DNA from: Planctomycetota bacterium
Lineage (GTDB): Bacteria > Planctomycetota > Planctomycetia > Pirellulales > UBA7805
Assembly (NCBI GenBank): GCA_003389215.1
Contig: QQVP01000134.1
Span: forward strand, 9,850 to 73,849
DNA: 64,000 bases
Direction of reading: 5' to 3'
Shown: one piece after another, positions 11,288-29,762 of the stretch
Position numbering within the stretch: position 1 is the first letter of the stretch
Layout: each line of letters begins with the position of its first letter
The notes under the pieces: generated by a model
What the model was told of the DNA's origin: nothing
Databases searched by the model: none
Seen by the model: only the letters and a program-made list of their open reading frames with translations
Position numbers and translations under genes: made by a program

Positions 11288-11366
11288 CTTCGCGTTCGAA
11301 TCGGCAGCGGCGTCTTCGGGGAGCGCCAGATCTTCGGGGATGACCGCGCGATGCCGAGCCGTGGCT

Positions 11367-12002
11367 TCACTCGTCGATCTTATTGCGAACGGCCCACACG
11401 GCGGCCTGCGTGCGGTCGGTCACCCCGATCTTGCGGAAGATGTGCTGCACGTGTTCCTTGACCGTCTCGTAGCTGATGTTCAGAGAGTGGCCGATCTCGC
11501 GATTCGTCAGCCCCTTGGATAGTCCAATCAGAACCTCCGCCTCGCGCTGGGTGAGCGGCACGTTTCCCTTCATGCTCCAGCGGGGCGTCGCCAAGGCGCC
11601 CGTCACGCGGCGCAGCTCGTCGCGAGTCCAAATCATCTCGTGCCGCGCCGCCGCATGAATCGCGGCAATCAGCCGCTGCGAAGGGCAATTCTTCAGGAGA
11701 TAACCCGCCGCCCCCAGAGCCACGCTGCGGGCGATCAAGTTGGGGTTGTCGTGATTCGAGAACATCAACACCGGCAGGTCCGGATGATCGAGCTTGATGC
11801 GGCCGAGGACGGTGAGCCCACACATGTCGGGCATCACCGCGCCCAGCGTCACGACGTCGACTTCGTGTTCCTTGAGCGAATTGAGGACGCCCTCGCCGCA
11901 ACAGGCCTCGGCGATGACCTTGATGTCGGAGTCCGCGACAAATCTGCGGATACCGGCGCGAACGAGCTCGTGCTCTTCCGCAACGAATAGTTTGATGCTC
12001 AT
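11367..12002 (-). CDS. NarL/FixJ-family (LuxR-type HTH) two-component response regulator
   Basis: N-terminal receiver domain (KLFVAEEHELVRAGIRRFV...DVVTLGAVMPDMCG) plus C-terminal LuxR HTH (LTQREAEVLIGLSKGLTNREIGHSLNISYETVKEHVQHIFRKIGV). Confidence 0.85.
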   Translation of the reverse strand: MSIKLFVAEEHELVRAGIRRFVADSDIKVIAEACCGEGVLNSLKEHEVDVVTLGAVMPDMCGLTVLGRIKLDHPDLPVLMFSNHDNPNLIARSVALGAAGYLLKNCPSQRLIAAIHAAARHEMIWTRDELRRVTGALATPRWSMKGNVPLTQREAEVLIGLSKGLTNREIGHSLNISYETVKEHVQHIFRKIGVTDRTQAAVWAVRNKIDE

Positions 12003-13285: not shown

Positions 13286-14536
13286 ATGGCCACCGCGACT
13301 CCGCTCGCCAAAGACAACGTCGCTCGGGTCCTCGATCGCGCGATGGACGCCGCCGCGGGCATCTTGAGACTCACTCCGACCTGGGTGCCCCGCAGTTTTC
13401 TGCACCCTGGAAAGCGCCTGAAGCTCGCCCCCGGCGACTATTACGCCTATGGGGCGCACCGTGGCGGGATCGACGAGCGCTGGTTTGCCAGTACCACGGA
13501 AGCCGCCAATGAAGGCCGTCTCGACGACGAAGGACTCAGCTACGTCACTTTCGAAGGCCAGCGATTCCTGCTGCGCGACGCCGTCGACGAGGCGGGCGAA
13601 CGGCTCATCGGCGCCGCCATCTTCAGCAAGTACAACCGTTGGCCCGTCTATTCGAAGTTTTTCGACAACATGGGCCCGATCCCGCATCACATGCACCAGG
13701 GCTTCGAAGACGCCAAGCTCGTCGGCCAGGAAGGCAAGCCCGAGTCGTATTACTTCCCGCCGCAGTACAACAATTGCGACAACAACTTTTGTTACACCTT
13801 CATGGGGCTCGAGCCGGGTACGACCAAGGATCAGCTCCGCAAGTGTCTCGAGAATTGGAGCCAGGGTGACAACGGCATTTTGGATCTCTCCAAGGCCTAT
13901 CGCCTCAAACGCGGCACCGGCTGGTTGATTCCGCCAGGCGTGTTGCACGCGCCGGGCTCGCTGCTGACCTACGAACCGCAATGGGGCAGCGACGTGTTCG
14001 CCATGTTCCAGTCGCTGGTCGAGGGACGCGAGGTGCCGTGGTCGCTGTTGGTCAAAGACATGCCCGATGACAAACATCAGGATCTCGACTTCATCATCGG
14101 GCAACTCGACTGGGAGAAGAACGTCGATCCGAACTTCAAGGATCACAATTACCTCGAGCCGATCGTCGACGAGAGTTGCTCGGGCGATGGCTACACCGAT
14201 CGCTGGATCGACTACGGAACGGTCAACGGCGAGCAACTCTTCTCGGCCAAGGAGCTGACCGTCGAGCCGGGCGCCAAGTGTGTCTTGCGCGATCCGGGGG
14301 CCAGCGGCTGGATCACGGTGCAGGGGAGCGGTCGCATCGGCGAATTGCCGCTGCAAACGCCTGCCATGATCCACTTCGGCGAGGAGACGGAGGACGAAGT
14401 CTTCATCACGGCCGAGGCGGCGACGGCGGGGGTCGAAATCGAGAACACCGGCAGCGAACCACTCGTCTCGCTCCGCTACTTCGGGCCGGACGTCCACGCC
14501 AGCATGCCCGAGGTGGGCGACTACCGAACTGGTTGA
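13286..14536 (+). CDS. cupin-fold protein resembling the type I phosphomannose-isomerase family (putative sugar/sugar-phosphate isomerase)
   Basis: Two motifs parallel the PMI class I topology: AYGAHRGGIDERW (cf. WMGAHP) and WPVYSKFFDNMGPIPHHMHQ (cf. PFLFKVL..LSIQVHP). Function is inferred only. Confidence 0.45.
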   Translation: MATATPLAKDNVARVLDRAMDAAAGILRLTPTWVPRSFLHPGKRLKLAPGDYYAYGAHRGGIDERWFASTTEAANEGRLDDEGLSYVTFEGQRFLLRDAVDEAGERLIGAAIFSKYNRWPVYSKFFDNMGPIPHHMHQGFEDAKLVGQEGKPESYYFPPQYNNCDNNFCYTFMGLEPGTTKDQLRKCLENWSQGDNGILDLSKAYRLKRGTGWLIPPGVLHAPGSLLTYEPQWGSDVFAMFQSLVEGREVPWSLLVKDMPDDKHQDLDFIIGQLDWEKNVDPNFKDHNYLEPIVDESCSGDGYTDRWIDYGTVNGEQLFSAKELTVEPGAKCVLRDPGASGWITVQGSGRIGELPLQTPAMIHFGEETEDEVFITAEAATAGVEIENTGSEPLVSLRYFGPDVHASMPEVGDYRTG

Positions 14537-14796: not shown

Positions 14797-17700
14797 ATGA
14801 TGTTCGTCTCTCGTCTTTCGCGTTGTCTCCGTACTTTCCCGATCCTCTGTCGAACCGCTTCGTGCGGTGTCCGCGTCGCGACACTCTCGCTGGCGCTGGC
14901 CCTCTGCCTTGCCGCCCAGCCGAGCCTGGCCGCGGCCCAGTTCGAACTTCAGCCCGGCGACCGAATCTGCATCATCGGCAACGCCCAGGCCGAACGCCTG
15001 CAGCACTTTGGCTATTTCGAAACGGCGCTGCACCGGGCGTTCCCCCAGCATGAACTTGTCGTCCGCAACCTCGGCTGGTCGGCGGACGAATTGACGCTCA
15101 AACCCCGTTCGCAGAACTTCGGCAGCCAGGACGACTACCTGCGGCGCGAGAAGGCGGACGTCATCCTGGCCTTTTTCGGCTTCAACGAGTCGTTCGCCGG
15201 ACCCGCGGGCCTGGCGAAATTCAAGCAAGATCTAACGAAGTTCATTCACCACGCGCGAGGCCAGAAGTACAACGGCGAGAGCGCGCCGCGCCTGGCCCTG
15301 ATCTCACCGCTGGCCCACGAGAACCTGGGCGATCCACATCTTCCCAGTGGCGAGGCCCGCAACGAAGTCCTCAAGCTCTACACCCAGGCGATGGCCGACG
15401 TGGCAGCGGCAGAGAAGGTGCCGTTTGCCAACGTGTTCCAGCCTTCTGAGGCGCTCATGAAGCAGGCGGCCGCGCAGGGCCAGCCGCTGACCATCAACGG
15501 CATTCACCTCAATGACCTCGGCTCGCAGAAGATGGGCCCGGCCCTGATGCAGGCGTTGTTCGGAGACAAGGTGGGCCAGGACGTCGTGGCATCCGATTCG
15601 CCGCTTCGCGCCGCGGTCAACGACAAGAACCTGCACTTCTGGTACCACTACCGCGCGGTCAACGGCTTTTACATCTACGGTGGCCGCTCGCCGCTGTGGG
15701 ACAACGTCAAGGTGATGGAAGTCGAGCGACAAAAGATTGCCGACATGGTCTCGCTCCGCGATCGCGTGGTCTGGGACCTGGCCCAAGGCAAGACACCGCA
15801 GCCGATCGACGATACGCAAACCACGCCACTGATGAAGGTCGAGACCAACTTCCATCGCGAGATCGAGTACCTGACGCCGGAAGATCAGATCAAGACATTC
15901 AACATCCCCGAAGGCTTCGTCGTCGAGCTGTTCGCCTCCGAGCGCGAATTCCCCGAGCTGAAGAACCCGGTGCAAATGGCCTTCGACGCCCACGGACGAC
16001 TCTGGGTCTGCACGATGCCGTCGTATCCGCAGTATCAGCCACCCAGCGAGGTGAACGACAAGCTGCTCATCTTCGAGGATACCGACGGCGACGGGCGGGC
16101 CGACAAGCGAACCGTCTTTGCCGACGGGCTCCATGTACCGACCGGCTTCGAGCTCGGCCATGATGGAGTCTACCTGGCCCAGCAGCCGAACCTGATGTTC
16201 CTCAAGGACACCGACGGCAACGACGTCGCCGACGAGCGGACGATTATCCTGCACGGCTTCGACTCGGCCGACTCGCACCACTCGATCAGCGCCTTTACCT
16301 GGGGGCCGGGCGGAGCCCTCTATTTTCAGGAGGGCACTTTTCACCACTCGCAAATCGAGACGCCCCACGGTCCCGTGCGGGTGAAGAACGCCGGCGTCTT
16401 TCGCTATGAGCCGAAGAGCGAGAAGCTTGATGTCTTCGTCTCCTATCCGTTCGCCAATCCTTGGGGCCACATCTTCGACGCCTGGGGCCAGAACTTTGTG
16501 GCCGATGCCTCGGGCGGTTCGAACTACTTCGCCGCGGCCTTCTCCGGCCACGTCGAGTATCCCCGCAAGCATCGCCGGATGAACGAGTTTTTCCGTCGCG
16601 AATTTCGTCCCACCGCCGGCTGCGAGATTGTCTCGAGCCGCAACTTCCCCGCAGAGATGCAGGGCGACTACTTGCTCAACAACTGCATCGGATTCCGGGG
16701 TATCGGACGCTACAAGTTCAAGGAGGATGGTTCCGGTCTGGCCGCCACCACGCAGGGGCCGCTGCTGCAGTCCGACGATCCGAACTTCCGCCCGGTCGAT
16801 CTCGAGTTCGGGCCCGACGGGGCGCTTTACTTCGTCGATTGGTACAACCCGTTGATCGGCCACATGCAGCACTCGCTTCGCGATCCCAAACGCGATCATC
16901 GCCACGGCCGCATCTGGCGTCTTCGCAATACGAAGCAGCCGCTGACCGAGCCCGCCAAGATTGCCGGGGCGACGATCTGGGAATTGATCGACCTGCTCTC
17001 CGCTCCCGAGCTTCGTACCCGCTATCGGGCCCGACGCGAACTGGCCCAGCGGGACGAGCAAGAGGTTGCCGACGCGCTCGTGCATTGGGCCACCACGCTC
17101 AGCGGCTCGACCCTGAAGAAGGGCGTCTACCAGGATCAGCTCGAAGCGCTTTGGATGCATCAGACCATCGACGTCGTGAACGAGACGCTGCTGCGCGAGG
17201 TACTCCGTTCGCCCGATCCGCGTGCCCGCGCCGCGGCGACGCGCGTGCTGTGCTACTGGCGCGATCGGATCGACTCGGCGATCGAGCTGCTGACGATTCA
17301 GGCCGGCGATCGACACCCACGCGTGCGGCTCGAGGCGGTTCGTGCGGCCAGCTTTTTTAAGGACCCCCGCGCAACGGAGATCGTGCTCGAATCGCTCGTC
17401 CACCCGCAGGACTACTATCTCGAATACACGACGGGCGAAACGCTGACGACGCTCCGCGACTTCGAGTTCGGCTTGGTCGGATTGCTCAAGAGCGGGCGAC
17501 TGCCGACGGAGCGAATACCGTTCGTCATTCGCCTGGCCGCCAAGCGTGGCAACAGCGACGACCTGGGCTACTTGTTCGATCTGGCGGTCGCCGACGACTC
17601 GCTCTCGGTCGAAGCCCGACGGGCCGCACTCGAGGGGCTCCGCGAAGCGGTACGCTACCGCAACGTACGGCCCAACGCCGACTATCGCCCGCTGGCCGAC

Positions 17701-19167
17701 CTGATCCTGCGGTTGCGTGACGACAACCGCAAGCCGGCCCTCATGGCAGCGCTGAAGCTCATCGGCCTGTTACGCGTCAGGGCGGCTGAGCCGCAGCTCA
17801 TCGAACTGGCCCTCGACGATCAACTCGCCGGCGCAATCCGTCGTGCGGCACTCGATGTCCTCGTGGGATTCAACTCCAACCGAGGACGCGCCGCCATCGT
17901 CAAGCTCACGTCGCCCGATCGTCCGCTTGCCGAACGTTACATGGCCATTGGCGTGCTCACGCGGGTCGACGTGGCGGAAGCGGCCCGGCGAGCCGGTCAG
18001 GCGCTGACAGAGGCCGACGGAGCGACCGACCCCGCCAGGCTGATCCAGGCATTCCTGCAGCGGCCCGAGGGAGTCAAACAACTGGCCGCCGCGCTCGAAG
18101 GCGTCGAGCTCGACCAGGATGTCGCGAAACTCGCCCTACGGGCCATGTACGCGGTCGGTCGTAGCGATGCGGAACTGACCAGCATGCTCACCAAGGCCGC
18201 CGGCATTCAGACCCAAGCCGCAGAGCTAAGCGACGAGGAAGTCGCCAAGCTGGAGTCCGCCGTTCGCAACTCGGGCGATCCGGCCCGCGGAGAGCAAGTA
18301 TTTCGCCGCGCCGATTTGAGCTGCATGAACTGTCACGCCCTGGGCGGGGTTGGCGGCGGCGTGGGACCCGAGCTGACCGCCGTCGGCTCGAGTTCGCCGG
18401 TGAAGTACCTGATCAACGCGATTCTGCTGCCGGACAAGGAAGTCAAGGAAGAGTTTCGCATGGCGCACGTCTACACGGCCGACGGCCGCGCGCTCAAGGG
18501 CATCATTCACGAAGACGGCGAAGACCGGCTCGTGCTGAAGGATGCCACCGGACGCCGCACCGCCATCGCGAAGGCCGACATCGACGATCGCGAAGACGGC
18601 GGCTCGCTGATGCCCAAGGGCCTCGTTCAGTTCATGACGCAGCGAGAGCTCGTCGACCTGGTTCGCTTTCTTTCCGAGCTCGGCCGCGACGAGAGCTACA
18701 AGGTTCGCAACACCCCCACGGTGCGGCGCTGGCGGGTGCTGGCCGAAGTCGACTCCGAGCTGACCCGCGAGGTGCCCAACGAGGAAGTCTTTACTGACAA
18801 GGTGCTGGAGCTCGACGGCAGCTCGTGGCGGGCCGCCTATTCGATGACCGGCGGGACGCTGCCGCTCGACGAGTCGGTGGCCCCGGCCGACCAGGACGTG
18901 CTCTACCTGCAGTTCGAAATCGACGTCGACTTCGCCGGCCAGCTCGACATCATCGCCGACTCGCCAGCGGGGCTGACCATGTGGGCCGACGATGTGCAGC
19001 TCGACTTCGCCGAGCGAGAGCCCAAGACGGTGGGCGACTTCGCAGAGGGCCGGCACCGGATTACGATTCGCGTCGATCGCACGCGGCGTGACACCGACAC
19101 GCTGCGCATCGACCTGCGTCGGATCGAGGGCTCGCGAACCCGCGCACGCTTGGTCGCGGGGGTTTAG
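14797..19167 (+). CDS. large secreted multidomain protein: SGNH/GDSL-like hydrolase domain, PVC-type membrane-bound dehydrogenase (beta-propeller) domain, HEAT repeats, C-terminal cytochrome c domain
   Basis: Start at MMFVSRLSRCLRTFPILC... (signal). ICIIGNAQAERL...GWSADE (SGNH-like); FVVELFASEREFPELKNPVQMAFDAHGRLWVCTMPSYPQYQP (Pirellula/Verrucomicrobium dehydrogenase N-terminal domain); many HEAT-like repeats; CMNCHALGG heme-binding CXXCH. The upstream in-frame ORF extension 14176-14796 is non-coding-like. Confidence 0.8.
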   Translation: MMFVSRLSRCLRTFPILCRTASCGVRVATLSLALALCLAAQPSLAAAQFELQPGDRICIIGNAQAERLQHFGYFETALHRAFPQHELVVRNLGWSADELTLKPRSQNFGSQDDYLRREKADVILAFFGFNESFAGPAGLAKFKQDLTKFIHHARGQKYNGESAPRLALISPLAHENLGDPHLPSGEARNEVLKLYTQAMADVAAAEKVPFANVFQPSEALMKQAAAQGQPLTINGIHLNDLGSQKMGPALMQALFGDKVGQDVVASDSPLRAAVNDKNLHFWYHYRAVNGFYIYGGRSPLWDNVKVMEVERQKIADMVSLRDRVVWDLAQGKTPQPIDDTQTTPLMKVETNFHREIEYLTPEDQIKTFNIPEGFVVELFASEREFPELKNPVQMAFDAHGRLWVCTMPSYPQYQPPSEVNDKLLIFEDTDGDGRADKRTVFADGLHVPTGFELGHDGVYLAQQPNLMFLKDTDGNDVADERTIILHGFDSADSHHSISAFTWGPGGALYFQEGTFHHSQIETPHGPVRVKNAGVFRYEPKSEKLDVFVSYPFANPWGHIFDAWGQNFVADASGGSNYFAAAFSGHVEYPRKHRRMNEFFRREFRPTAGCEIVSSRNFPAEMQGDYLLNNCIGFRGIGRYKFKEDGSGLAATTQGPLLQSDDPNFRPVDLEFGPDGALYFVDWYNPLIGHMQHSLRDPKRDHRHGRIWRLRNTKQPLTEPAKIAGATIWELIDLLSAPELRTRYRARRELAQRDEQEVADALVHWATTLSGSTLKKGVYQDQLEALWMHQTIDVVNETLLREVLRSPDPRARAAATRVLCYWRDRIDSAIELLTIQAGDRHPRVRLEAVRAASFFKDPRATEIVLESLVHPQDYYLEYTTGETLTTLRDFEFGLVGLLKSGRLPTERIPFVIRLAAKRGNSDDLGYLFDLAVADDSLSVEARRAALEGLREAVRYRNVRPNADYRPLADLILRLRDDNRKPALMAALKLIGLLRVRAAEPQLIELALDDQLAGAIRRAALDVLVGFNSNRGRAAIVKLTSPDRPLAERYMAIGVLTRVDVAEAARRAGQALTEADGATDPARLIQAFLQRPEGVKQLAAALEGVELDQDVAKLALRAMYAVGRSDAELTSMLTKAAGIQTQAAELSDEEVAKLESAVRNSGDPARGEQVFRRADLSCMNCHALGGVGGGVGPELTAVGSSSPVKYLINAILLPDKEVKEEFRMAHVYTADGRALKGIIHEDGEDRLVLKDATGRRTAIAKADIDDREDGGSLMPKGLVQFMTQRELVDLVRFLSELGRDESYKVRNTPTVRRWRVLAEVDSELTREVPNEEVFTDKVLELDGSSWRAAYSMTGGTLPLDESVAPADQDVLYLQFEIDVDFAGQLDIIADSPAGLTMWADDVQLDFAEREPKTVGDFAEGRHRITIRVDRTRRDTDTLRIDLRRIEGSRTRARLVAGV

Positions 19168-19326
19168 AGCGCGTCTCGTTTATCTCTAGCGTCTTGGCGG
19201 GCTACGACTGCGTTTGACGTCGTCGACCTGCATCGACGAATCTACCAATTCGTCTGCTTCGGTCTGGTGGCCAAACTTGCCTCGCCTACGCCAACGACGC
19301 GACACCTGTCCTAGACACGCTCTAGT
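19165..19326. repeat. copy B of the conserved intergenic element with terminal inverted repeats (TAGAGCGCG ... CGCTCTAG)
   Basis: See copy A. Spans exactly from the TAG stop of the upstream plus-strand gene to the CTA (TAG) stop of the convergent minus-strand gene. Confidence 0.7.
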
Positions 19327-20605
19327 CCCCGTAGATATGATCCCGCTTGGCCTTGTTGTAGGCCAGCTTTTCCGCCTGCGTCATGGCGGCGAAGTTGGGC
19401 GGGTTCTCCGGATCGTAGACCACCGCCTTCGACCCGTCGCCGCAGCCACCCGGGGCCCCGTTGCAGCCGCAGCCGCAATCTTTCTTCTCTTTCTTGCCTA
19501 CCCTCGTGCGCCCAGGCTGCGGGCTACTTTCGCTGGACCCCACCGGCACGCCCGCCGGTACGACGACCTGACCACCACTGGCGTAGCTCATCACGGCCGT
19601 CTGCAACTGCAAGTCATCGGCCAGCGATCGCAGGGGACGGATGCCCAGCTTCTGCAGCACGCCGTGATAGGCCCGCACTGCTTCCTCGGGCTCGATCTCG
19701 CCGTCGGCCAGCATACGCAGGAACTGTACAAAGGCCAGCTGGCACTCCGAGTTGTTGATTTTGCGGCCGAACAGCGCCGCCCGGGCGCCGTACTTCTTGG
19801 CTTCGTAAAGCAGCTTGAAGGCGTCGAGCGTGGTGCCGCTGCTGCCGCCCAAAATGCCGACGACCAGGTGCGGGTCGTAGGCCACCAGGTCTTCCATCGC
19901 CTGGGGACCCTGATACACCATCTTCAGAAAGACCGGCCGTCCCGGCATCGCCACGCCCGCCAGGGTCCGTGCGATGTGGTCGTTCACAAAATCCGGAATC
20001 ATCTCGGGCGAGAGCCCGTCGGGCATGTTCGGATTGAAGATTTCCAGAAAGTGGCGAAACCCCTTTCGCTCCGCCTCGATGCGAAAACAGCGGTACGCCT
20101 CCAGCGTGCGGAGGTCGTCGTCCAGGCGGTTGTTGAACGTGACGCTATAGAGGCCCAGGTTCGCGCCACGAAAACGGTCTTCTGCACTGCAGTCGACGTG
20201 GCCGCACTGGATGTGATCGAGCGTGGCCGTGCGAAACGGCTGAGCGGGCGCTTCGAGATACTTGCCGCCGCGGACGACAAACACATCGCTGGCGTCGTTG
20301 GCCCGTGCGGCCGGCGTGATCGGCGAGTCGTCGAACAGTCGTTCGACGATGGTGAGGACGTCGTTCGTGCTGGCCGACATCAACATGATGTCGACGAGCC
20401 CCTGCCGGACGATCTGCCGGATCTGTTCGCGGTACTCACCCAGCGTCTTGAAACGAACCTCGTCGGCGTGGCTCTCCGGCGATTTGCCAGGCGCCCCGAT
20501 GCCAAAGGCCATGTCGGCGTCCTTGGCGTCGGCCAGGATGAAGTCCTTCGCGCCGTGCGGGTCGGCGTGAATGTTGGCCAGTTTTTGGTCGAGGGTCTTC
20601 TGCAT
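19322..20605 (-). CDS. DhnA/FbaB-type class I aldolase family protein with Cys-rich C-terminal tail
   Basis: LFGRKINNSE and FLKMVYQG motifs parallel E. coli FbaB (ILGRKAFKKS, LVKLNH). The tail KKDCGCGCNGAPGGCGDG is followed by a putative amphipathic helix. It is the last gene of the BMC operon. Confidence 0.6.
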   Translation of the reverse strand: MQKTLDQKLANIHADPHGAKDFILADAKDADMAFGIGAPGKSPESHADEVRFKTLGEYREQIRQIVRQGLVDIMLMSASTNDVLTIVERLFDDSPITPAARANDASDVFVVRGGKYLEAPAQPFRTATLDHIQCGHVDCSAEDRFRGANLGLYSVTFNNRLDDDLRTLEAYRCFRIEAERKGFRHFLEIFNPNMPDGLSPEMIPDFVNDHIARTLAGVAMPGRPVFLKMVYQGPQAMEDLVAYDPHLVVGILGGSSGTTLDAFKLLYEAKKYGARAALFGRKINNSECQLAFVQFLRMLADGEIEPEEAVRAYHGVLQKLGIRPLRSLADDLQLQTAVMSYASGGQVVVPAGVPVGSSESSPQPGRTRVGKKEKKDCGCGCNGAPGGCGDGSKAVVYDPENPPNFAAMTQAEKLAYNKAKRDHIYGD

Positions 20606-20684
20606 CGTGGCGATAGGCGGCGGAAAAGCGTACTTCGTGCGGCAGGGCGAGGTGGACGGGGTCGTGAATCGCACTCGCGAACGA

Positions 20685-21608
20685 CTAGCGGGCGGCTCCG
20701 TTTTGCAGGGCGGCCACCACGCGATCGGTGATCGTCTGAATCAGGGCCTCCTGGTCGGCGGTCGCCGCGGGCGCGGCCGCCACGGGCGAACCGTTTGACC
20801 TTGCGACGCCCGTGCTGCCTTGCGGAGCCATCGAGGCCCCGACTCGCTTCATAGTCGGCGGGGCCTCGAACGCCCGACGCTCCACACCGACGCTCGTCCA
20901 GCTGTCGCGGAACAGATCGTTGGCACACACGTCGCAGTTCTCCATCCGCTTTTCGTTGCGCGGATCGCGGAAGCCCCACTTGGCTTTCGTCTCCAGCAGC
21001 TCGCGCTCTTCCTGCTCGGTAAAGTAGTTGACCTTGCCCAGGTCGCGGGCGAGCATCAGCATGCGGCAATAGGCGTCGAGCACCTCGGTCCACCAGTAGG
21101 CCTGCTCGACCGTTTCTCCCCAGCTGACCGTCCCGTGATTGGCCAGGATCACCACGTTCGAGTCCTTCACGACCGGGATGATCGTGTCGGCGAACTTCTG
21201 CGTGCCGGGCGTTTCGTACTTGGTGATCGGCACGTCGCCCAGGAATATCTCAACCTCGGGCAATACGCACTGCGGAATCGGCTCGCGGGCAATCGCAAAC
21301 GCGGTGGCGTGGGGCGGATGGCAGTGGACGATACTGTTGATGTCGTCGCGTTCTTTGTAGATCTGCAGGTGCAGCAGGGCCTCGCTGCTCCGCTTCTTGC
21401 GCCCGGCCAGCTGGTTGCCCTGCATGTCGATCAGGCAGATGTCGTCAGGTTTGAGGAAACCCTTCGAGTGCATTGTCGGCGTGCAGAGAACCTCGCGGTC
21501 GTTGAGTCGATACGTGATGTTGCCGTCGTTGGCGGCGGCAAATCCCTTGTTGTAGAGTCGGCGACCGATGTCGCAGATTTCCTGTTTGATCCGGTGGGCG
21601 TTCTGCAT
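20685..21608 (-). CDS. class II aldolase (L-fuculose-/L-rhamnulose-1-phosphate aldolase-like) with C-terminal encapsulation peptide
   Basis: Class II aldolase/adducin fold (NDGNITYR...HCHPPHATAFA...ANHGTVSWG). ~90-aa C-terminal extension ends in Ala/Pro linker plus amphipathic helix DQEALIQTITDRVVAALQN. Confidence 0.85.
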   Translation of the reverse strand: MQNAHRIKQEICDIGRRLYNKGFAAANDGNITYRLNDREVLCTPTMHSKGFLKPDDICLIDMQGNQLAGRKKRSSEALLHLQIYKERDDINSIVHCHPPHATAFAIAREPIPQCVLPEVEIFLGDVPITKYETPGTQKFADTIIPVVKDSNVVILANHGTVSWGETVEQAYWWTEVLDAYCRMLMLARDLGKVNYFTEQEERELLETKAKWGFRDPRNEKRMENCDVCANDLFRDSWTSVGVERRAFEAPPTMKRVGASMAPQGSTGVARSNGSPVAAAPAATADQEALIQTITDRVVAALQNGAAR

Positions 21609-21716: not shown

Positions 21717-22007
21717 CTACACATCGTCGCAGACGTGTATCGTGTCGAGGATCGCCGCGTTGTAGGCGTCGATCGGTTTCATCTCGGGGTGAAAAGGCAT
21801 GGCCGCTTCACGACTCTCGCTCAACGCGATGAGCGTGTCGGGGCCCGCCCCCAATTCGTCGTAAACGACCAGGGGATCGGCCGTCGTCGTCGCAGGATCG
21901 CCCAGCTCCGCTTCGCTGAGCGGCACCGCCAGGCGATAGGAACCGCCGGCCAGCGTCGGATGACTGCGGCTGAGCGTGACGGTTCCAATGACCTTGGCAA
22001 TTCGCAT
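21717..22007 (-). CDS. BMC vertex protein (EutN/PduN/CcmL family, BMC-P)
   Basis: MRIAKVIGTVTLSRSHPTLAGGSYRLAVPL...PLVVYDELGAGPDTLIALSESREAAMPF; start at internal Met. Confidence 0.85.
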   Translation of the reverse strand: MRIAKVIGTVTLSRSHPTLAGGSYRLAVPLSEAELGDPATTTADPLVVYDELGAGPDTLIALSESREAAMPFHPEMKPIDAYNAAILDTIHVCDDV

Positions 22008-22026
22008 CGTTCTTACTTCCGGGGCC

Positions 22027-22284
22027 TTAGTCACAAATCCCCATGACACTCCACCGCACGGGCGTCGTGTCGCTGTCTAACAACTCGCGCGTGTACCGCC
22101 CGTCGGTCGTGAGCAGCACGCGTTGTCCCGCGCCGGCGCCCAGGGCATCGACGACGATGACCGGTTCGCCGTCGGCCGAGCGGCCATCGGCCATCAACAG
22201 GCGCACGATGAGCAGCTTCCAGCCCTCCATCGAGGCGTGCTTGACCGTGGCGGTCGCGGTGCCGATAACGCGGGCGAGCTGCAT
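22027..22284 (-). CDS. BMC vertex protein (BMC-P) paralog
   Basis: MQLARVIGTATATVKHASMEGWKLLIVRLL...PVIVVDALGAGAGQRVLLTTDG. Its ATG overlaps the TAA of the upstream ALDH gene (TAATG). Confidence 0.85.
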   Translation of the reverse strand: MQLARVIGTATATVKHASMEGWKLLIVRLLMADGRSADGEPVIVVDALGAGAGQRVLLTTDGRYTRELLDSDTTPVRWSVMGICD

Positions 22285-23783
22285 TACGCTTTCCCCAAAA
22301 TCCGCAAGTCGTCGATCAGCGAGCAACGTCGCTCGCGGGTGAAGGTCAGCGGCGTCGTCACGCCCTCGCCGGTCGGGGTGGCGATGGAGAACGACAGATA
22401 GCCTTCGCCGCCCAGCCCGAGCGACGACATGCACGGTCCGTTCTTGACGAACAGGGTCGTATCCATCACGCGACCCATGGTCGTCATGTTTCGCACGTTG
22501 TTCGAGTGGATGATCGCCGTGTGGCGGAAGCCGTGTTCGTGTTTCTGGGCCAGGGCAATCGCCTCGTCGACGTCGCGGCATCGCACGAAGGGCAAGAAGG
22601 GCATCATCTGCTCGACCGGCACGAAGGGATTTGTCTCGTCGGTCTCGCCAAAAATCATCAGCGTGTCGGCCGCGATCGGACGTCCCGCGCCGCGGGCCAG
22701 CACCGACGCGTCCTTGCCCAGGAACTCCTTGCACGGCACGTCGTGCCGATCGGCCCCTTCGCCCACCGAAGTGATGGCGACGCTGGTCAGTTTGTCAATC
22801 TCGCTACAACTGAGCCGCACGGCGCCGGCCCGTTCCATCGACTGCAGCATGCGGTCGAACACGGAGTCGACGACGAAGACCTCCTTCTCGGCGATACAGA
22901 GCAGATTGTTGTCGTACGAGCCGCCTTGAATGATGGCCCGCGCGGCCCGGTCGAGATCGGCCGTCTCGTCGACGACAACCGGCGGATTGCCGGGCCCCGC
23001 CACGATGGCTCGCTTGCCACTGTTGAGCGCCGCTCGCGCCACGGCCGGTCCGCCGGTCACGCAGATCAACTTGACGCCGCGATGGCTGAAGATGGCGTTG
23101 GCCGAGTCGAGTGTCGGCTCGGCGATGACGCAGATCAGGTTGTCGATTCCCAGGTCTTTGGCAATCGCCTGGTTGAATCGCCGTACGCCCTCGGCCGCCA
23201 CGCGTTTGCCGCTGGGGTGCGGATTCACGACCAGCGTGTTCCCGCCGGCGATCATGCTCACGGCGTTGCCGGTAATGGTGGGCAGGCTGTGGGTGACCGG
23301 GGTAATGGCACCAATGACACCAAAAGGGGCGTGCTCGATCACGGCCAGGCCGTGGTCGCCGCTGTAGACGTCGCTCCGCATGAACTCGACGCCGGGCGTC
23401 TTCAGGCCGAGCGTCTTGAGCTTCTCGATCTTGTGTTCCAGCCGGCCGATCTTGGTCTCGTTCATCTCCATCGTGCCGAGTTCGACCGACTGATCGATCG
23501 AGATGCGGCGGATGTGCTTGATGATTCGCTCGCGGTCTTCCAGCGTGCAAGCACTGAGTTGTTCGAAGGCTTCCGTGGCGGCGGCCACCGCTTCGTCGAC
23601 GTCGTGAAACACGCCGTGGCGTCCGTGATAGGACGGGCTCGTGACGGGGGCGGGTACCGCTGCGGCAGCGGAGGCCGTGGACGCACGCGCCGTCGAGGGC
23701 ACGACCGACGGGCCTGCGGGGCTCCCCATCTCCTGTAGGACTTGGGCAACGACGTCACGGACCAGGGCTTCGTTGACGCTCAT
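22284..23783 (-). CDS. CoA-acylating aldehyde dehydrogenase (PduP/EutE-like) with N-terminal encapsulation peptide
   Basis: N-terminal amphipathic helix VNEALVRDVVAQVLQEM followed by a Pro/Ala/Ser linker. ALDH core with catalytic-Cys motif NLLCIAEKE. Confidence 0.9.
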   Translation of the reverse strand: MSVNEALVRDVVAQVLQEMGSPAGPSVVPSTARASTASAAAAVPAPVTSPSYHGRHGVFHDVDEAVAAATEAFEQLSACTLEDRERIIKHIRRISIDQSVELGTMEMNETKIGRLEHKIEKLKTLGLKTPGVEFMRSDVYSGDHGLAVIEHAPFGVIGAITPVTHSLPTITGNAVSMIAGGNTLVVNPHPSGKRVAAEGVRRFNQAIAKDLGIDNLICVIAEPTLDSANAIFSHRGVKLICVTGGPAVARAALNSGKRAIVAGPGNPPVVVDETADLDRAARAIIQGGSYDNNLLCIAEKEVFVVDSVFDRMLQSMERAGAVRLSCSEIDKLTSVAITSVGEGADRHDVPCKEFLGKDASVLARGAGRPIAADTLMIFGETDETNPFVPVEQMMPFLPFVRCRDVDEAIALAQKHEHGFRHTAIIHSNNVRNMTTMGRVMDTTLFVKNGPCMSSLGLGGEGYLSFSIATPTGEGVTTPLTFTRERRCSLIDDLRILGKA

Positions 23784-23889: not shown

Positions 23890-24201
23890 TTACTGCTCGC
23901 GCGAGTAAACGCAGTGGTTCTCCACGTGTACCGTGTCGACGATGCCGATAATCACCGCGTCGATCGGCAGGTTCTTCGTCTCGGGCGTCAAGCGGGCGCT
24001 CGACCCCTGCGTGATGAGGACGTACTCGCCCTCGCCGGCGCCGATCGTGTCGATCGCCACGAAGGTACGACCCGTGGTGGTCAGACTCTTCCGCTTCTCG
24101 GCTTCCAGGCGATACGGTTCGACGACCATCAGCTTGTGACCGACGACCTCGCCGACCTTCTGTGTCGCCACTACCGAGCCGGTAACTTTTGCTACGAACA
24201 T
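23890..24201 (-). CDS. BMC vertex protein (BMC-P) paralog
   Basis: MFVAKVTGSVVATQKVGEVVGHKLMVVEP...TFVAIDTIGAGEGEYVLITQGSSARL; start at internal Met. The long ORF-track extension is non-coding-like. Confidence 0.85.
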   Translation of the reverse strand: MFVAKVTGSVVATQKVGEVVGHKLMVVEPYRLEAEKRKSLTTTGRTFVAIDTIGAGEGEYVLITQGSSARLTPETKNLPIDAVIIGIVDTVHVENHCVYSREQ

Positions 24202-24244: not shown

Positions 24245-24278
24245 CCAGCGCCTAAGTTTCCAGCGCCTAGTTTTCCAG
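24245..24278. repeat. tandem direct repeat CCAGCGCCTAAGTTT / CCAGCGCCTAGTTTT (+CCAG) spanning the ackA stop codon
   Basis: Two adjacent 15-nt units differing at 2 positions. Shares a CTAG(G)CGC core with the repeat upstream of ackA. Confidence 0.5.
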
Positions 24279-25451
24279 GTGTTCTCTTGCTTGCCGGGCG
24301 ACGATGATCTCCTCGTTCGTCGGCACGACCCAAACTTGCACGCGACTCTCCGCCGCGTTGATTTGCGACTCGCCGCGGGCCGCTTCGTTGGCCGCCTGGT
24401 CGAGCACGATGCCAAGCTCGCTCAGCTCCGCACAGACGGCCGCCCGAATGCGGGTGCCGTTCTCGCCAATGCCGCCGGTGAAGACGATCGCATCGGCCCC
24501 ACCCAGCTCGACCAGGTACGCACCCAGGTAGTGCCGCACGCTGGCGATGAACATGTCGAGGGCCAGCTGCGCCTGGTGGTTGCCAGCCGCGGCGGCCTCT
24601 TCCAAGTCGCGAATGTCGCCACTGACTCCGCTGACGCCCAGCAGGCCTCCTTCGTTGGCCATCGCGGCCAGCACCTCGTCGAGCGTCTTCTCCGTCCGCT
24701 TGATGAGCTGGGGCAGGGCATAGGGATCGAAGTCGCCGACGCGATTGTTGTGCGGCAAGCCCGACTGAGGACTCATGCCCATACTCGTGGCGACGCTCGC
24801 CCCGTCGCGAATCGCGGCCAGGCTGCTCGAACCCCCGAGGTGACAGGAGATGATCCGCAAGTCGCGGCGACCCAACAGTTCGTTCATCCGCGTGGCAATG
24901 TAGCAATGGCTCGCGCCGTGGAAGCCCCACTTCCGCACATGAAACTCTTCGGCCCACGAACGCGGAATCGCATACGTCCGATTGCACTCGGGAATCGAAG
25001 CGTGGAAGCCGGTCTCGAACGCCGCCACCAGCGGAATCTCGGGCAACTGCTCGCGCAACTGCCGTATGGCCGCGATGTAGGGTGGGTTGTGGGCCGGGGC
25101 TACTTCGTTCATCTCTTCCATCGCTGCGAGGACGTCCTCATCAATCCGCTGCACGCCGCTCAGGCGGCCGCCGTGAACCGCCTTGAAACCGATCGCCGAA
25201 ACTTCGCCGGCATCCGTCAGGCATCCGTGTTCGGTGTCGGTCAATTGGGCCAGGCACCGTCGCACCGCCTCGGCATGATCGGGCACTTCGGCCACCAGCT
25301 CGTCGCGATACTCGCCGATCTCGGCCACGCAGCGACTTTCCGCCGAGCCGATCCGATCGATTCCGCCACGGGCCAGCTGCCGCTCGTCCGTCATGTCGAA
25401 CAGACGATACTTGAAGCTCGTCGAGCCCAAGTTGGCGACCAGGACCTTCAT
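24267..25451 (-). CDS. ackA: acetate (propionate) kinase
   Basis: [20 protein letters not shown]... full-length acetate kinase. SD AAGGAG 9 nt upstream of the ATG. Confidence 0.9.
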
Positions 25452-25598: not shown

Positions 25599-25868
25599 TT
25601 ACTTCAGGTACGCCTCGACCAGACCTTCGGCCGGACGGGGGATCACGTGACTCGAGACCAGCTCGCCGACCTGGTTGGCCGCGTTGGCACCGGCTTCGAC
25701 CGCCGCGCGCACGCTGCCGACGTCGCCTTTGACGATCGTGGTCAACAGGGCGCCGCCGATCTGCACGCGCTTCACGATTTCGACGTTCGCCGCTTTGGCC
25801 ATCGCGTCGGTCGCCTCGACCAACGGCACCAGGCCGCGGGTTTCAATCATTCCGATTGCATGTTCCAT
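25599..25868 (-). CDS. BMC shell protein, hexamer type (BMC-H, PduA/EutM-like)
   Basis: AIGMIETRGLVPLVEATDAMAKAANVEIV...GDVGSVRAAVEAG. Confidence 0.9.
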   Translation of the reverse strand: MEHAIGMIETRGLVPLVEATDAMAKAANVEIVKRVQIGGALLTTIVKGDVGSVRAAVEAGANAANQVGELVSSHVIPRPAEGLVEAYLK

Positions 25869-25982: not shown

Positions 25983-26276
25983 CTACTTGGCGCCCGCCGC
26001 CGGACCGAGGGCAATGTTCAGATCCTCGTGTGGGCGGGGAATCACTTGCACGCTGATCACTTCGCCGACGCGGCCGGCCGCACTGGCTCCGGCGTCGGTC
26101 GCCGCCTTCACCGCCGCCACGTCGCCGGTCACAAAGGCCGACACCATCCCGCTGCCGACTTTGTCCCAGCCCAGAAACTGGACATTGGCAGCCTTCATCA
26201 TCGCGTCGCTCGCCTCGACCAGGGCAATAAAACCCTTCGTCTCGATCATGCCGAGCGCCTCTTGAACTTTTGCCAT
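25983..26276 (-). CDS. BMC shell protein, hexamer type (BMC-H) paralog
   Basis: [36 protein letters not shown]...[13 protein letters not shown]; start at internal Met. Confidence 0.9.
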
Positions 26277-26402
26277 AGCAAGAATCTCCCAAAGAACCAA
26301 AAACCATTTCCTCGAGTGAGGAGTCTGTCAACCAAAGTTGTCTCGTTCGGTGTCCCTTCGCGGGGCGGCTCGGGTCCTCGTCCAACCCGCCGCCCGTTTC
26401 AT

Positions 26403-27068
26403 TTACTGTTTCAATAACTCGCACTTCGTGGCGTGTTCCAAGTCGGCCGCGTTGCCTTCGTCGGTGTCGAGGTGAACTTCCAACTTGCTGGTGGCGTCGG
26501 CCCGCACCAGCAGATCTTCGAGCACAACGCTGCAGCTCGACTCGATGCGCAGGTTCATGCGATCGCCGTTGGCCACGCCAAATCGCTCCGCGTCGGCAAA
26601 GTTCATGTGGACGTGTCGCTCGGCGCGAATCACGCCTTGCTCGAGCTCCACGACACCTGCCGGACCGACCAAGACACAGCCCGGCGTACCTTCGATCTTG
26701 CCGCTGGCGCGAACCGGCGCGTCGATGCCTAGCGAGATGGCGTCGGTAAAGGCCAGCTCCACCTGGCCGTGCGGTCGCGTGGGACCCAGAATGCGGACGG
26801 TCGGCAGCATCCGCTTCCGCGGGCCGACCAGCATCACGGTCTCTTCGGCCGCGTAGAAGCCGTCCTGATAGAGTTCCTTCATGGGCGTCAGCGTACGGCC
26901 CGGTCCAAATAGCGTCTCAACCTGCTCATCGGTCAGGTGGACGTGACGTGCCGAAATGCTCACAACCAGTTCGCGCTCCGGCGCGGCCGCCGGAGCCGGG
27001 GAACGCAACACAATGTCACGGACGATGCGTTCGACGGTGTCACGATCGATGGGGGCGGCATTAATCAT
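26403..27068 (-). CDS. pduL: PduL-type phosphotransacylase with N-terminal encapsulation peptide
   Basis: N-terminal amphipathic helix [17 protein letters not shown] plus PAPAAAP linker, then PduL-fold repeats (ISARHVHL..., [14 protein letters not shown]). Start could also be the upstream Met at 27089. Confidence 0.85.
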
Positions 27069-27116
27069 AGGTGTTTCTCGGGTTGGCAAGGCTCCGCACT
27101 GGGGAGCCCCGATGGG

Positions 27117-27920
27117 TTACGGCTTCCCGGCCGCTTTCGCTTCGCCGAGCGACGGAGCGACCAGCAACTCGACGCCCGAGTCGCGGAGCTGCTCCTGCCA
27201 CGATGAGCTGATCTGCTCGTCGACCACGAGTCGATCGATTTCGTCGAGGCTGCCGACGTGAGCCAGGCTGCGGTGGCCGAATTTGGTGCTGTCGGCAACG
27301 ACGATCACCTCGTCGGCCATTTGGATCATGGCCCGCTGGGTTTCGACCTGTAAGACGTTGCTGTTGTAGTAGCCCTGTTCGTTGATCGCGGCGACGCTGA
27401 TCACGGCGCGACGGACGTTCAACTCGGCCAGCATCCGCGTGGTGTAGGGCCCCATCGTCACGCCGGTTCGCGGGTGAACGTTCCCGCCCACGAATACGAG
27501 ATCGCTGTCGGCGCTCGACGCGAACAGATTCGCCACCGGCATGGAGTTGGTCACCACCTGCAGCGGCCGACCCGCCAGCAGCCGTCCAACTTCATAGGTC
27601 GTGCTTCCGCCGTCCAGAAGCAATGTGTCGCCATCCTCGATCAGTCCGGCGGCAACCTGGGCGATTGATCGCTTCTTGTCCCACTCCGCCTCCTGACGAT
27701 CCTTGAAGTGGGGAAACTCCGGCGAGCCCCCGGTGTAGAAGGCGCCACCGTGAGTCCGCTTCGCGGCGCCCACCTCTTCGAGATGTTCCAAGTCGCGACG
27801 AACCGTCGACTCCGAGACGGCGAGTTCGCCCGCCAGCTCGGGCAGCGACGCGAATCCGCGCGCGCGAACGAGGTCGAGAAGTTGCGAACGTCGATCTTCG
27901 GCAAGCGGTGGGGAGGGCAT
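27117..27920 (-). CDS. DeoR/GlpR-family transcriptional regulator (first gene of the BMC operon)
   Basis: N-terminal HTH (QLLDLVRARGFASLPELAGELAVSESTVRRDLEHLEE) plus DeoR C-terminal sugar-phosphate-binding domain. Confidence 0.85.
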   Translation of the reverse strand: MPSPPLAEDRRSQLLDLVRARGFASLPELAGELAVSESTVRRDLEHLEEVGAAKRTHGGAFYTGGSPEFPHFKDRQEAEWDKKRSIAQVAAGLIEDGDTLLLDGGSTTYEVGRLLAGRPLQVVTNSMPVANLFASSADSDLVFVGGNVHPRTGVTMGPYTTRMLAELNVRRAVISVAAINEQGYYNSNVLQVETQRAMIQMADEVIVVADSTKFGHRSLAHVGSLDEIDRLVVDEQISSSWQEQLRDSGVELLVAPSLGEAKAAGKP

Positions 27921-27941
27921 AGAACCGACGAGAAGATGCAA

Positions 27942-28268
27942 GTGCCTGACGGTACTTAATCAATTCTGGGCGAAAACATGCTCATTTGCAATCTCCTTCT
28001 GGTATTAATATTTCATCATCGTGACGGATATCTTTCATTTGGCCCTCCCCGCTTCAGCCTGGCCGTCGCTTTCTTGAGACGCAAGTCATTTTCATGCAAT
28101 TGGTTACGTCGTCCTAATCGCGGCCACAGCGGGGCTTTGCGGCCTGCTGCAAAGCGACCGATCCGCACCTCGAACAGGGGGGGTATTCAAGCATCCGGGG
28201 CTGCGGCAGAATCGCGAGCCGCGTTGCCGACTCGGCTCGCTCCAGACACCAAGTGGGACCGAAACGTC
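27942..28268. promoter_or_regulatory. AT-rich divergent promoter/operator region between the DeoR-BMC operon and rhaB
   Basis: Markedly AT-rich block (ttgcaatctccttctggtattaatatttcatcatcgtgacggatatctttcatttgg) in a high-GC genome. An 8-bp-stem hairpin GCGAGCCG..CGGCTCGC sits just upstream of rhaB. Confidence 0.4.
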
Positions 28269-29762
28269 ATGGCGGGAAATGCCTACATCGCGATTGATCT
28301 GGGGGCCGAATCGGGACGCACGATCGTCGGCCTCGTCGACCGAGGTCGCCTACATCTGGCAGAGATTCATCGCTTCCGCCATCTCGCGCGGCAACTGCCC
28401 AGCGGTCTGCACTGGGATCTGATGGGCTTGTGGGGCAACATCCTCGAGGGGGTCGCGTGTGCGGTCGACTGGGCCGACAGCCAGGGCCAAACGCTCACCT
28501 CGCTGGGCGTCGACACCTGGGGCGTCGACTATGCTCTGCTGGGCCAGAGCGGTGAGCTACTCGCGATGCCGCACTGTTATCGCGACGAACGAAACAACGT
28601 GGCCTTCGATCGTGCGGTTGAGGCGGTCGGGGCCGAAACGCTCTACGATGCCACCGGCATCCAGCTGCTGCCGCTCAACACGCTCTTCCAGGTGCTCGCC
28701 CAGCACGCGGCCGAACCAGAGCTACTCTCCAGGGCCCAACAGCTACTCTTCATTCCCGATCTGTTGCACTACTTCTTCACGGGTCGGACCACGTGCGAGG
28801 CGACGATTGCGTCGACGAGCCAAATGACCGACGCCCGCACGGGCACGTGGAATCTCGATCTGCTCGCCAAGCTCGCGCTGCCGACACAGATGCTGCAGGA
28901 CATCGTGCCGCCCGGCACGAATGTCGGCACGATCCTTCCGCACGTCGCCGCCGCCACCGGAGCCAGTGAGCAACTGCAGGTCGTCGCCCCGGCATCACAC
29001 GATACCGCCTCGGCAATTGCCGCCGTGCCCGCGGAAGTCGGCACGAGTTGGGCCTACATTTCCAGCGGCACCTGGTCGCTGATGGGCGCCGAGCTTCCGG
29101 GCCCGTGCGTTACCCCCGCGGCCCGCGCGGCGAACTTCACCAACGAAGGCGGCGTCGACGGTACGATCCGTTTCCTAAAGAACCTGATTGGCTTGTGGCC
29201 GGTGCAAGAGTGCCGCCGCGCCCTGGAGAATTCGGGCCAGACGCTCGACTATGCGGCGCTCACCGCGGCGGCTGCGGACGCCGAGCCGTTCCGGACGTTG
29301 CTCGACTTGAACTACCCACCGCTGATGTCGCCGGGCGAGATGCCTCGGAAGATCGCCGACTTTGCCCGGGCAAGTGGACAACCGGAACCGGAGTCGGCTG
29401 GCCAGCTGGTTCGTTGTTGTCTGGAAAGCCTGGCGCTGCTCTATCGTCGCACGCTCGACGAGCTGGAGGCCGTGCTGGAGCGGAAGTTTGATGTGCTGCA
29501 CGTCGTGGGTGGTGGGGGGCGCAATGAACTGTTGAATCAATTCACGGCCAATGCCGTCGGTCGTCCCGTCGTTGTCGGTCCGGAAGAAGCGACCGCCGCG
29601 GGCAATGTCCTCGTGCAGGCCATGGCCGCGGGACAAATCGCCAATCTGGCCGAGCTGCGAAAGGTGGTGCGGACCTCGTTCGAGCCGAAGCGCTACGAGC
29701 CGGAAGACACCGACGCCTGGTCCGCCGCCGCCGCACGGTTCGCAGAGATCATCGGCGGCTAG
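28269..29762 (+). CDS. rhaB: rhamnulokinase-like FGGY-family sugar kinase
   Basis: Start at MAGNAYIAIDLGAESGRTIVG. FGGY N- and C-domains (HVVGGGGRNELLNQFTANA). The 97-codon ORF-track extension is AT-rich non-coding. Confidence 0.75.
   Translation: MAGNAYIAIDLGAESGRTIVGLVDRGRLHLAEIHRFRHLARQLPSGLHWDLMGLWGNILEGVACAVDWADSQGQTLTSLGVDTWGVDYALLGQSGELLAMPHCYRDERNNVAFDRAVEAVGAETLYDATGIQLLPLNTLFQVLAQHAAEPELLSRAQQLLFIPDLLHYFFTGRTTCEATIASTSQMTDARTGTWNLDLLAKLALPTQMLQDIVPPGTNVGTILPHVAAATGASEQLQVVAPASHDTASAIAAVPAEVGTSWAYISSGTWSLMGAELPGPCVTPAARAANFTNEGGVDGTIRFLKNLIGLWPVQECRRALENSGQTLDYAALTAAAADAEPFRTLLDLNYPPLMSPGEMPRKIADFARASGQPEPESAGQLVRCCLESLALLYRRTLDELEAVLERKFDVLHVVGGGGRNELLNQFTANAVGRPVVVGPEEATAAGNVLVQAMAAGQIANLAELRKVVRTSFEPKRYEPEDTDAWSAAAARFAEIIGG

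Follow-up and report, generated by a model that had tools for sequence, protein, structure and literature searches.

A predicted class I aldolase-type protein with an unusual C-terminal extension at the end of a PVM-type microcompartment operon in Planctomycetota

We analyzed a 64,000-nucleotide stretch of DNA from a Planctomycetota bacterium (hereafter the window; contig QQVP01000134.1 of assembly GCA_003389215.1, forward-strand positions 9,850 to 73,849) and focused on one gene, the target, which encodes a 427-residue protein at the end of a PVM-type bacterial microcompartment (BMC) operon. The reading that we favor, with a probability of roughly 0.6, is that the product is an accessory enzyme, a second aldolase that generates aldehydes from 6-deoxy-ketohexose-1-phosphates (of the L-rhamnulose-1-phosphate or L-fuculose-1-phosphate type) and is tethered by its C-terminal tail. 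The parts of this reading differ in strength. It is likely that the product is an aldolase-type enzyme which forms a Schiff base with a phospho-ketose; cleavage of a 6-deoxy-ketohexose-1-phosphate to dihydroxyacetone phosphate (DHAP) and lactaldehyde is proposed tentatively; and a role of the tail in BMC association is conceivable but doubtful. The target belongs to a large family that is a new branch, as yet uncurated, within an enzyme superfamily already known; its own extension is unusual and associated with a microcompartment.

The target and its parts are located as follows.
19322–20605 (stop codon 19322–19324 included), minus strand: coding sequence of the 427-residue class I aldolase-like protein, from the open reading frame (ORF) list and translation.
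19583–20605, minus strand: core (beta/alpha)8 TIM-barrel domain, residues 1–341, ending in TAVMSY.
19922–19924, minus strand: K228 codon; this lysine is the predicted Schiff-base residue and belongs to strand beta6 (motif FLKMVY).
19400–19582, minus strand: linker of low conservation with abundant G, S, A and P, residues 342–402, delimited by AlphaFold2 confidence and variation among homologs.
19442–19477, minus strand: four-Cys patch CGCGCNGAPGGC of 12 residues within the linker (C377, C379, C381 and C388), from the translation.
19325–19399, minus strand: conserved C-terminal peptide PNFAAMTQAEKLAYNKAKRDHIYGD, residues 403–427, with a predicted helix at 410–425, from the translation and the AlphaFold2 model.

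The ORF at 19322–20605, as originally predicted, was recovered on the minus strand with an ATG at 20603–20605, a TAG stop at 19322–19324 and 427 amino acids; read on the plus strand, the same interval gives an unrelated translation. All strings quoted by the original prediction are present in the product, namely FLKMVYQG (226–233), LFGRKINNSE (278–287), KKDCGCGCNGAPGGCGDG and AAMTQAEKLAYNKAKRDHIY. The ATG was preferred over an upstream GTG at 20674 because homologs share the N-terminus MQKxLDxKLA with the target. A protein deposited at NCBI as 'hypothetical protein DWQ35_08035 [Planctomycetota bacterium]' (P0001) is 100% identical to it. A scan for promoters and terminators around the gene gave nothing above shuffled expectation.

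An AlphaFold2 model of the target, built from 45 homologs, consisted of eight alternating strands and helices, i.e., a TIM barrel. Among the nearest structural neighbors were class I fructose-bisphosphate (FBP) aldolases (4moz, 19.2; 1ojx, 19.0) and E. coli LsrF (18.6), followed by Cgl0159 (18.0), the sulfofructose-phosphate aldolase YihT (17.4), sulfohexulose-1-phosphate aldolase (17.1) and LacD (16.8). These nearest neighbors of the barrel belong to the DhnA/FbaB-type (PF01791, DeoC/LacD) group. Sequence comparisons pointed to the same region of fold space: the weak NCBIfam matches of the target (LsrF thiolase and ADH synthase) cover residues 227–314, and a PDB search with a profile made from 25 diverse members of the family gave LsrF and MJ0400 as top matches, though weak ones. 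When the 25 members were scanned singly, 22 matched the ADH-synthase NCBIfam model (best E-value 2.7e-6), 18 the LsrF model and 10 the archaeal class I FBP aldolase model, all far below the curated cut-offs. An hhalign comparison with E. coli FbaB was marginal, aligning only the GG and GRK motifs with a probability of 0.7%. Members of the DhnA/FbaB group (MJ0400 ADH synthase of M. jannaschii, archaeal FBP aldolase IA, LsrF, YihT and LacD) share only 11–18% identity with the target and have cores of 250–295 residues compared with approximately 340, the target having extra loops at 32–52, 104–117 and 192–225. The family also has features of its own: beta1 carries an ADAKD motif without variation, and beta5 carries E188. 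The best single-sequence PDB match was of a different kind: L-lactate dehydrogenase 1ez4, over residues 24–96 with an E-value of 0.079. Kinship with lactate/malate dehydrogenases (LDH/MDH), attractive at first since an LDH/MDH-like PvmO is a usual member of PVM loci, was ruled out, as profile searches gave no LDH match, the fold is a TIM barrel rather than a Rossmann fold, and a true PvmO ortholog occurs as a separate gene in 49 of 80 related loci (L001–L080). The resemblance to the LDH substrate-loop region was judged to be due to chance.

K228 lies within strand 227–229 of the model. Alignment of the target family profile with the E. coli LsrF sequence by hhalign pairs it, by position only, with LsrF K203, the structurally conserved Schiff-base lysine (PMC2728841); it also pairs G253/G254 with LsrF G226/G227 and G280/R281 with LsrF G253/R254, and G226, G227, G253 and R254 are the phosphate ligands of LsrF (PMC2728841). 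K228 and these four residues, together with D26, D29, D72, R101, N103 and E188, were invariant in the 25 diverse members (identity down to 44%), a set that includes tail-less proteins. Strand 23–27 (beta1) ends with D26 and D29, which by position only are candidates for the general acid/base aspartate that follows beta1 (D57 in LsrF, with an equivalent in the T. tenax FBP aldolase). On the basis of the aligned lysine and phosphate site and of the residue invariance, we place the family, at the level that sequence and model allow, within the superfamily of class I aldolases, where the DhnA group is its neighbor and every curated family excludes it. The original prediction of a DhnA/FbaB class I aldolase-like product is thus retained for the fold, the Schiff-base lysine and the phosphate site; no curated family profile is matched at its threshold. 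In the mechanism that we propose, K228 would react with the C2 carbonyl of a ketose phosphate to give an imine, and the phosphate would be held by G253–G254 (beta7) and G280–R281 (beta8); the invariant acidic residues D26/D29 (beta1) and E188 (beta5) would mediate proton transfer, and the C3–C4 bond would be cleaved to yield DHAP and an aldehyde. In four divergent relatives from the 50%-identity library (P0171, P0172, P0174 and P0150), the beta6 lysine was lost, for example by replacement of FLK with FTL or FVE. P0171 kept the C-terminal peptide and, judging from its sequence, may be a catalytically dead paralog.

The LsrF match could also be taken to mean a thiolase-type acyl transfer, in which the Schiff base of a phosphorylated diketo or keto sugar would be resolved by CoA to give DHAP and an acyl-CoA that would pass directly to the phosphotransacylase (PTAC) and acetate kinase arm of the organelle. 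We consider this very improbable: LsrF D251, the proposed special catalytic residue (PMC2728841), aligns with L278 of the target, ADH synthase and FBP aldolases score equal to or above LsrF, the operon has no LsrG-like or diketone-forming partner, and the kinase and isomerase contexts of relatives suggest an ordinary aldol cleavage.

These contexts were found in a very large family. One search gave at least 8000 significant matches, and all of those listed with a source name were called 'hypothetical'; the one exception among the names encountered is P0351, a relative without the tail, whose UniRef title starts with 'Fructose-bisphosphate'. When 1.84 billion cluster representatives were scanned, 1422 clusters at 50% identity were recovered (E-value ≤1e-3), and relatives are encoded in no fewer than 587 genomes at species level. 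Tail-less relatives have 327–348 residues and stop at the end of the barrel; all of them occur in kinase operons without BMC genes. For example, in the Alphaproteobacteria Dongia and Shinella the gene for the tail-less homolog abuts or overlaps a PfkB kinase gene, and the Acidisoma-type relative P0275 (from a Logan metagenome contig) overlaps the gene of a kinase of the ADP-dependent phosphofructokinase/glucokinase type; all three genes lie within or beside sugar-transporter operons with ROK or DeoR regulators. On one contig, a lyxose-type isomerase, a PfkB kinase and the homolog are encoded with overlapping stop and start codons and followed by an AraC regulator; on another, an FGGY kinase gene adjoins the homolog. 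In addition, two relatives are naturally fused to a PfkB kinase, with genomic contexts that were uninformative as to substrate. Kinase–aldolase fusions are known, as in the IolC-type PfkB kinase joined to a DUF2090 aldolase domain, and PDB 8tnf is a DUF2090 sulfohexulose-1-phosphate aldolase. The PfkB-fused relatives of the target differ in that the aldolase-like part is N-terminal and the kinase C-terminal, and in the lack of a DUF2090 profile match. Pairing and fusion with a kinase are the classical mark of a phospho-ketose aldolase, and both the single-kinase modules and the one with an isomerase speak for a ketose monophosphate, from which DHAP and a free aldehyde would be formed.

The main competing explanation for an enzyme of this type is a cytosolic gluconeogenic or triose-phosphate aldolase of the FBP or tagatose-bisphosphate type, which would condense the DHAP released by the class II aldolase PvmN with glyceraldehyde-3-phosphate and so lead deoxy-sugar carbon into central metabolism, the tail serving oligomerization or regulation rather than encapsulation. 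Most kinase-linked relatives, however, have one adjacent kinase only, and one relative belongs to an isomerase–kinase–aldolase module, which fits a ketose monophosphate better, and both the co-directional BMC linkage described below (81%) and a tail confined to the PVM clade would be superfluous for a housekeeping enzyme. We regard this explanation as unlikely. Some tail-bearing relatives that do not lie beside BMC genes also have kinases as neighbors: in L049 (7868–11263), a PfkB kinase and a bona fide PF01791 DeoC/LacD aldolase are encoded directly upstream, and in L068 (9294–11227) and L080 (9252–11257), a gene of the phosphoribulokinase/uridine-kinase family takes this position. The presence of a bona fide PF01791 aldolase beside the target homolog in L049 argues that the two are not simply interchangeable.

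The target lies on the same strand as, and downstream of, a canonical PVM-type operon with the gene order DeoR regulator, PduL-type PTAC, two BMC-H, acetate kinase, BMC-P, aldehyde dehydrogenase (AldDH), two BMC-P, class II aldolase and target. It follows the class II aldolase directly, as the original prediction had it, after a gap of 79 nucleotides, and is the last co-oriented gene. Its neighbors in this direction are listed below.
20685–21608, minus strand: PvmN-type class II aldolase with C-terminal encapsulation peptide DQEALIQTITDRVVAALQ (PF00596, E-value 1.7e-51).
21717–22007, minus strand: BMC-P (PF03319).
22027–22284, minus strand: BMC-P (PF03319).
22284–23783, minus strand: CoA-acylating AldDH (PF00171; NF011927, 627 bits).
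23890–24201, minus strand: BMC-P (PF03319).
24267–25451, minus strand: acetate kinase (Pfam match).
25599–25868, minus strand: BMC-H (Pfam match).
25983–26300, minus strand: BMC-H (Pfam match).
26403–27089, minus strand: PduL-type PTAC (Pfam match).
27117–27941, minus strand: DeoR regulator (Pfam match).
27978–29762, plus strand: rhamnulokinase-like FGGY sugar kinase, divergent from the operon (PF00370/PF02782).

Of the species-level orthologs, 63 have 3.5 kb or more of sequence upstream, and 51 of these (81%) were located directly downstream of PVM genes in the order seen in the window. The proposal of a deoxyketose-1-phosphate as substrate draws on three points. First, the PVM organelle handles both L-fucose and L-rhamnose (PMC4207490). 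Second, PvmN of the window is FucA-like (by NCBIfam, with a score below the cut-offs), while the kinase is rhamnulokinase-like (best match TIGR02627 rhamnulokinase, 454 bits, below the 528-bit cut-off). Third, several of the nearest structural relatives of the target act on 6-deoxy-ketohexose-1-phosphates. The target would thus supplement the FucA-like PvmN while being anchored, through its tail, to the shell or to the core of the cargo.

The tail was surveyed in 78 complete species-level orthologs. As predicted from the DNA, a low-complexity linker (342–402) is followed by a short terminal helix (410–425); the linker has pLDDT below 50 over 339–376, and its length and sequence vary among homologs. 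The conserved element of the tail is the C-terminal peptide, whose consensus PDFxxM[TS]xxE[RK]LAY[HN]xxR was present in at least 66 of the 78 orthologs and in its extended form ends in R[LW]xR. In a neighbor-joining tree of the core domain, the tail-bearing proteins formed one clade, centered on Planctomycetota, with the tail-less kinase-linked proteins outside it, a topology that means a single gain of the tail. In our reading, the barrel acquired its C-terminal extension (linker, optional Cys patch and basic helix) on one occasion in this clade, where the gene also joined the PVM operon at its 3' end.

The Cys patch behaved differently from the peptide. It was described in the original prediction as five cysteines in 12 residues; the count is four. 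Orthologs without the Cys-rich tail, named along with the original prediction as a finding that would refute it, do exist: 45 of the 78 orthologs (58%) have no tail Cys at all and 26 have exactly four, so the patch is a dispensable, lineage-specific insert and was ruled out as the defining feature of the tail. Within close homologs exactly four tail Cys residues were the norm (100 of 112), a recurrence that exceeds chance. The pattern C-x-C-(x)n-C-x-C, with n = 2–18, was seen in 24 of the 26 four-Cys tails, and the window protein and its close relatives have C-x-C-x-C-x6-C. As a candidate Cys4 metal-binding knuckle, the patch has the number and the pairing of cysteines and lacks conservation across the orthologs. 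Expanded versions with repeated CGC-type units were found in L011 (ortholog 10001–11404; 9 tail Cys) and P0083 (7 Cys), a sequence pattern which suggests that the patch evolves via duplication of short C-x-C modules. None of 12 orthologs not adjoining BMC genes had the patch; this restriction to BMC-linked copies is suggestive and is confounded by phylogeny.

A purely structural role can be envisaged from the same data: a catalytically relaxed barrel whose disordered tail, with metal- or disulfide-linking Cys, would nucleate or organize the cargo. Cys-bearing, encapsulation-peptide-bearing proteins of the MUF2 and ACI compartments provide a precedent (PMC8217296), and the four-Cys patch is found only in BMC-linked copies and is expandable to 7–9 Cys. 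On the other hand, the tail-bearing clade keeps the complete set of catalytic and phosphate-binding residues without variation, a sign that the enzyme works, the patch is missing from more than half of the orthologs, and most PVM loci lack the gene. An assembly factor of this kind is highly improbable in our estimation.

Encapsulation peptides (EPs) are defined by a domain followed by a poorly conserved linker of small or hydrophilic residues and an amphipathic terminal helix (PMC4594438). The target matches this anatomy, with its core, variable linker and amphipathic terminal helix of approximately 16 residues (410–425). The hydrophobic moment of the helix was 0.45 in the window protein and 0.40 in the family consensus, and the EP regions of the same operon gave 0.44 (AldDH), 0.50 (PvmN) and 0.59 (PTAC). 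Sequence conservation of the C-terminal peptide was 0.48 compared with 0.57 for the genuine PvmN EP (consensus DxExLVxxITDQVMAAL) in the same loci; thus, conservation is no argument against an EP role. Also in favor, the 2021 catalog lists proteins of related aldolase-type compartments that combine an EP with conserved cysteines (PMC8217296). From sequence and model, such a role of the helix is possible: of the divergent C-terminal EP originally predicted, the architecture and the amphipathic helix were found and an EP-like composition (approximately one third aliphatic residues, a hydrophobic face and acidic to neutral charge) was not. Alternatively, the tail might be an oligomerization or regulatory element. 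A more far-reaching proposal, which we consider unlikely, is that the tail represents a new BMC-targeting module, in which a basic amphipathic helix on a disordered tether, in some lineages with a C-x-C...C-x-C metal or disulfide clasp, would bring a Schiff-base aldolase into the PVM organelle. If so, the helix might pair with the acidic EPs of PvmN and AldDH, the organelle would have two aldehyde-generating signature enzymes of complementary stereospecificity (fuculose-1-phosphate versus rhamnulose-1-phosphate), and Pfam-based BMC catalogs would have overlooked a conserved cargo.

Several observations weigh against a tethered aldolase of the PVM organelle. With regard to the enzyme, confidence of the AlphaFold2 model is moderate (mean pLDDT 68.5) and low in the tail and three core loops, and the hhalign comparison with LsrF left the N-terminal half unaligned, including the presumed general-base Asp. 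A Pfam scan of the target gave no match at E-value ≤1, and its NCBIfam scores were only 14–17 bits compared with cut-offs of 241–299. The DeoC/LacD profile search suggested along with the original prediction also came back empty, PF01791 being matched by 0 of 25 diverse members, with only sub-threshold NCBIfam matches. With regard to the tail, the helix has only 23% ILVMFWY residues, a mean hydrophobicity of −0.40 and a net charge of +1 (+3 in the consensus), compared with −2 to 0 for the more hydrophobic EPs of the operon. The C-terminal motif was found on no other ORF in approximately 2 Mb of related loci, and the idea of a modular tag shared with other cargo was accordingly dropped. The association between the tail and BMC-bearing taxa amounts to a single evolutionary event. 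With regard to linkage, 12 of the 63 orthologs are not adjacent to BMC genes and yet keep the C-terminal peptide. Finally, in the reverse count, based on 37 PvmN-anchored metagenomic PVM loci with at least 2.6 kb of downstream sequence, the target gene was present in only 5 (∼14%); elsewhere the operon ends and unrelated genes follow, and a search for a replacement gene in the PVM loci without the target found none. The second refuting finding named along with the original prediction, orthologs not linked to BMC loci, thus holds for the 12 of 63. Synteny with BMC loci is one-sided: most orthologs are linked, and 32 of the 37 PVM loci do without the gene. Since most PVM operons lack it, the target is not essential for the organelle, and the reverse synteny rules it out as a core PVM gene. 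It is an accessory gene, strongly drawn to PVM operons.

Comparison with described PVM clusters is consistent with the accessory status. The characterized cluster is named pvmABDEGHIJKLMNO (PMC11958385), and in the 2021 catalog PvmO is an LDH/MDH-like dehydrogenase. The target was absent from the pvmA–pvmO names (PMC11958385) and from the PVM homolog table of the 2021 catalog, the original 2014 description lying outside this comparison. Its absence from BMC catalogs is explained by their classification of loci by Pfam domains, of which the target has none. An LDH/MDH-like PvmO gene was present in the 49 loci mentioned above and, in loci whose sequence reaches the aldolase (e.g., L001), it separates that gene from the target. 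In the window, no such gene was found between the two (20606–20684) or, by tblastn, anywhere in the 64 kb; the PVM operon of the window is a reduced version.

PvmN, the signature enzyme of the PVM BMC, resembles the target in organization. The two genes are adjacent and co-oriented in the same operon, both products have a catalytic domain, an unconserved Cys-containing linker and a conserved C-terminal helix, and both are predicted to yield DHAP and an aldehyde. Their folds and mechanisms are unrelated, PvmN being a metal-dependent class II enzyme and the target a predicted Schiff-base enzyme. Moreover, the C-terminal helix of PvmN is acidic and hydrophobic in the manner of a classical EP, whereas that of the target is basic and less hydrophobic, and the locus type is defined by PvmN, which the target accompanies in a minority of loci. 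In nearly all of the loci L001–L080, PvmN has a conserved C-x-x-C motif (ENCDxCxN) at residues ∼222–235, right after the catalytic domain; thus, both aldolase-type proteins of the operon bear linker cysteine motifs. A further parallel is the uncharacterized MUF2 protein (Sutter et al. 2021), in which an aldolase-related N-terminal domain is followed by a middle region of ∼60 residues that contains six conserved Cys and then by an EP at the C-terminus; the ACI protein has an EP and three conserved Cys (PMC8217296). Compared by description only, the MUF2 protein shares with the target a three-part layout in which conserved cysteines stand between a domain related to aldolases and a helix at the terminus, and the AldDH of the MUF2 metabolosome is the closest relative of the PVM AldDH. 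It differs in that its N-terminal domain is shared with PF00701 (DHDPS-type) aldolases and its six Cys are conserved within the ∼60-residue domain.

No Pfam or NCBIfam model covers the target family. Its recognition as a class I aldolase-type, sugar-kinase-paired family would provide annotation for thousands of genes and a pointer to unassigned sugar pathways. Fucose and rhamnose are degraded in the PVM compartment, an organelle of ecological importance, and locus classification based on Pfam is blind to a frequent member of the PVM operon, possibly a second aldehyde source or cargo, which had remained undescribed. If a basic helix with an optional Cys clasp does mediate encapsulation, the rules for predicting and engineering BMC cargo targeting would be wider than those in use.

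Minor observations concern the surroundings of the operon. Two genes past its end, a 416-residue ORF (13286–14536, plus strand) had no Pfam or NCBIfam match and was not kept beside the target in the 80 related loci. The gene between them, which is convergent to the target, is given below.
14800–19167, plus strand: 1455-residue protein with GDSL-lipase-like, DUF7133 and HEAT-repeat regions.
A homolog of this DUF7133/HEAT protein was found 3' of the target in L003 only. Within the operon, the interval 22008–22026 between the second and third BMC-P genes contains no gene, and L002 has at this place a 235-residue ORF (7100–7807) with a weak match to RpiB/LacAB (PF02502, E-value 2e-6).

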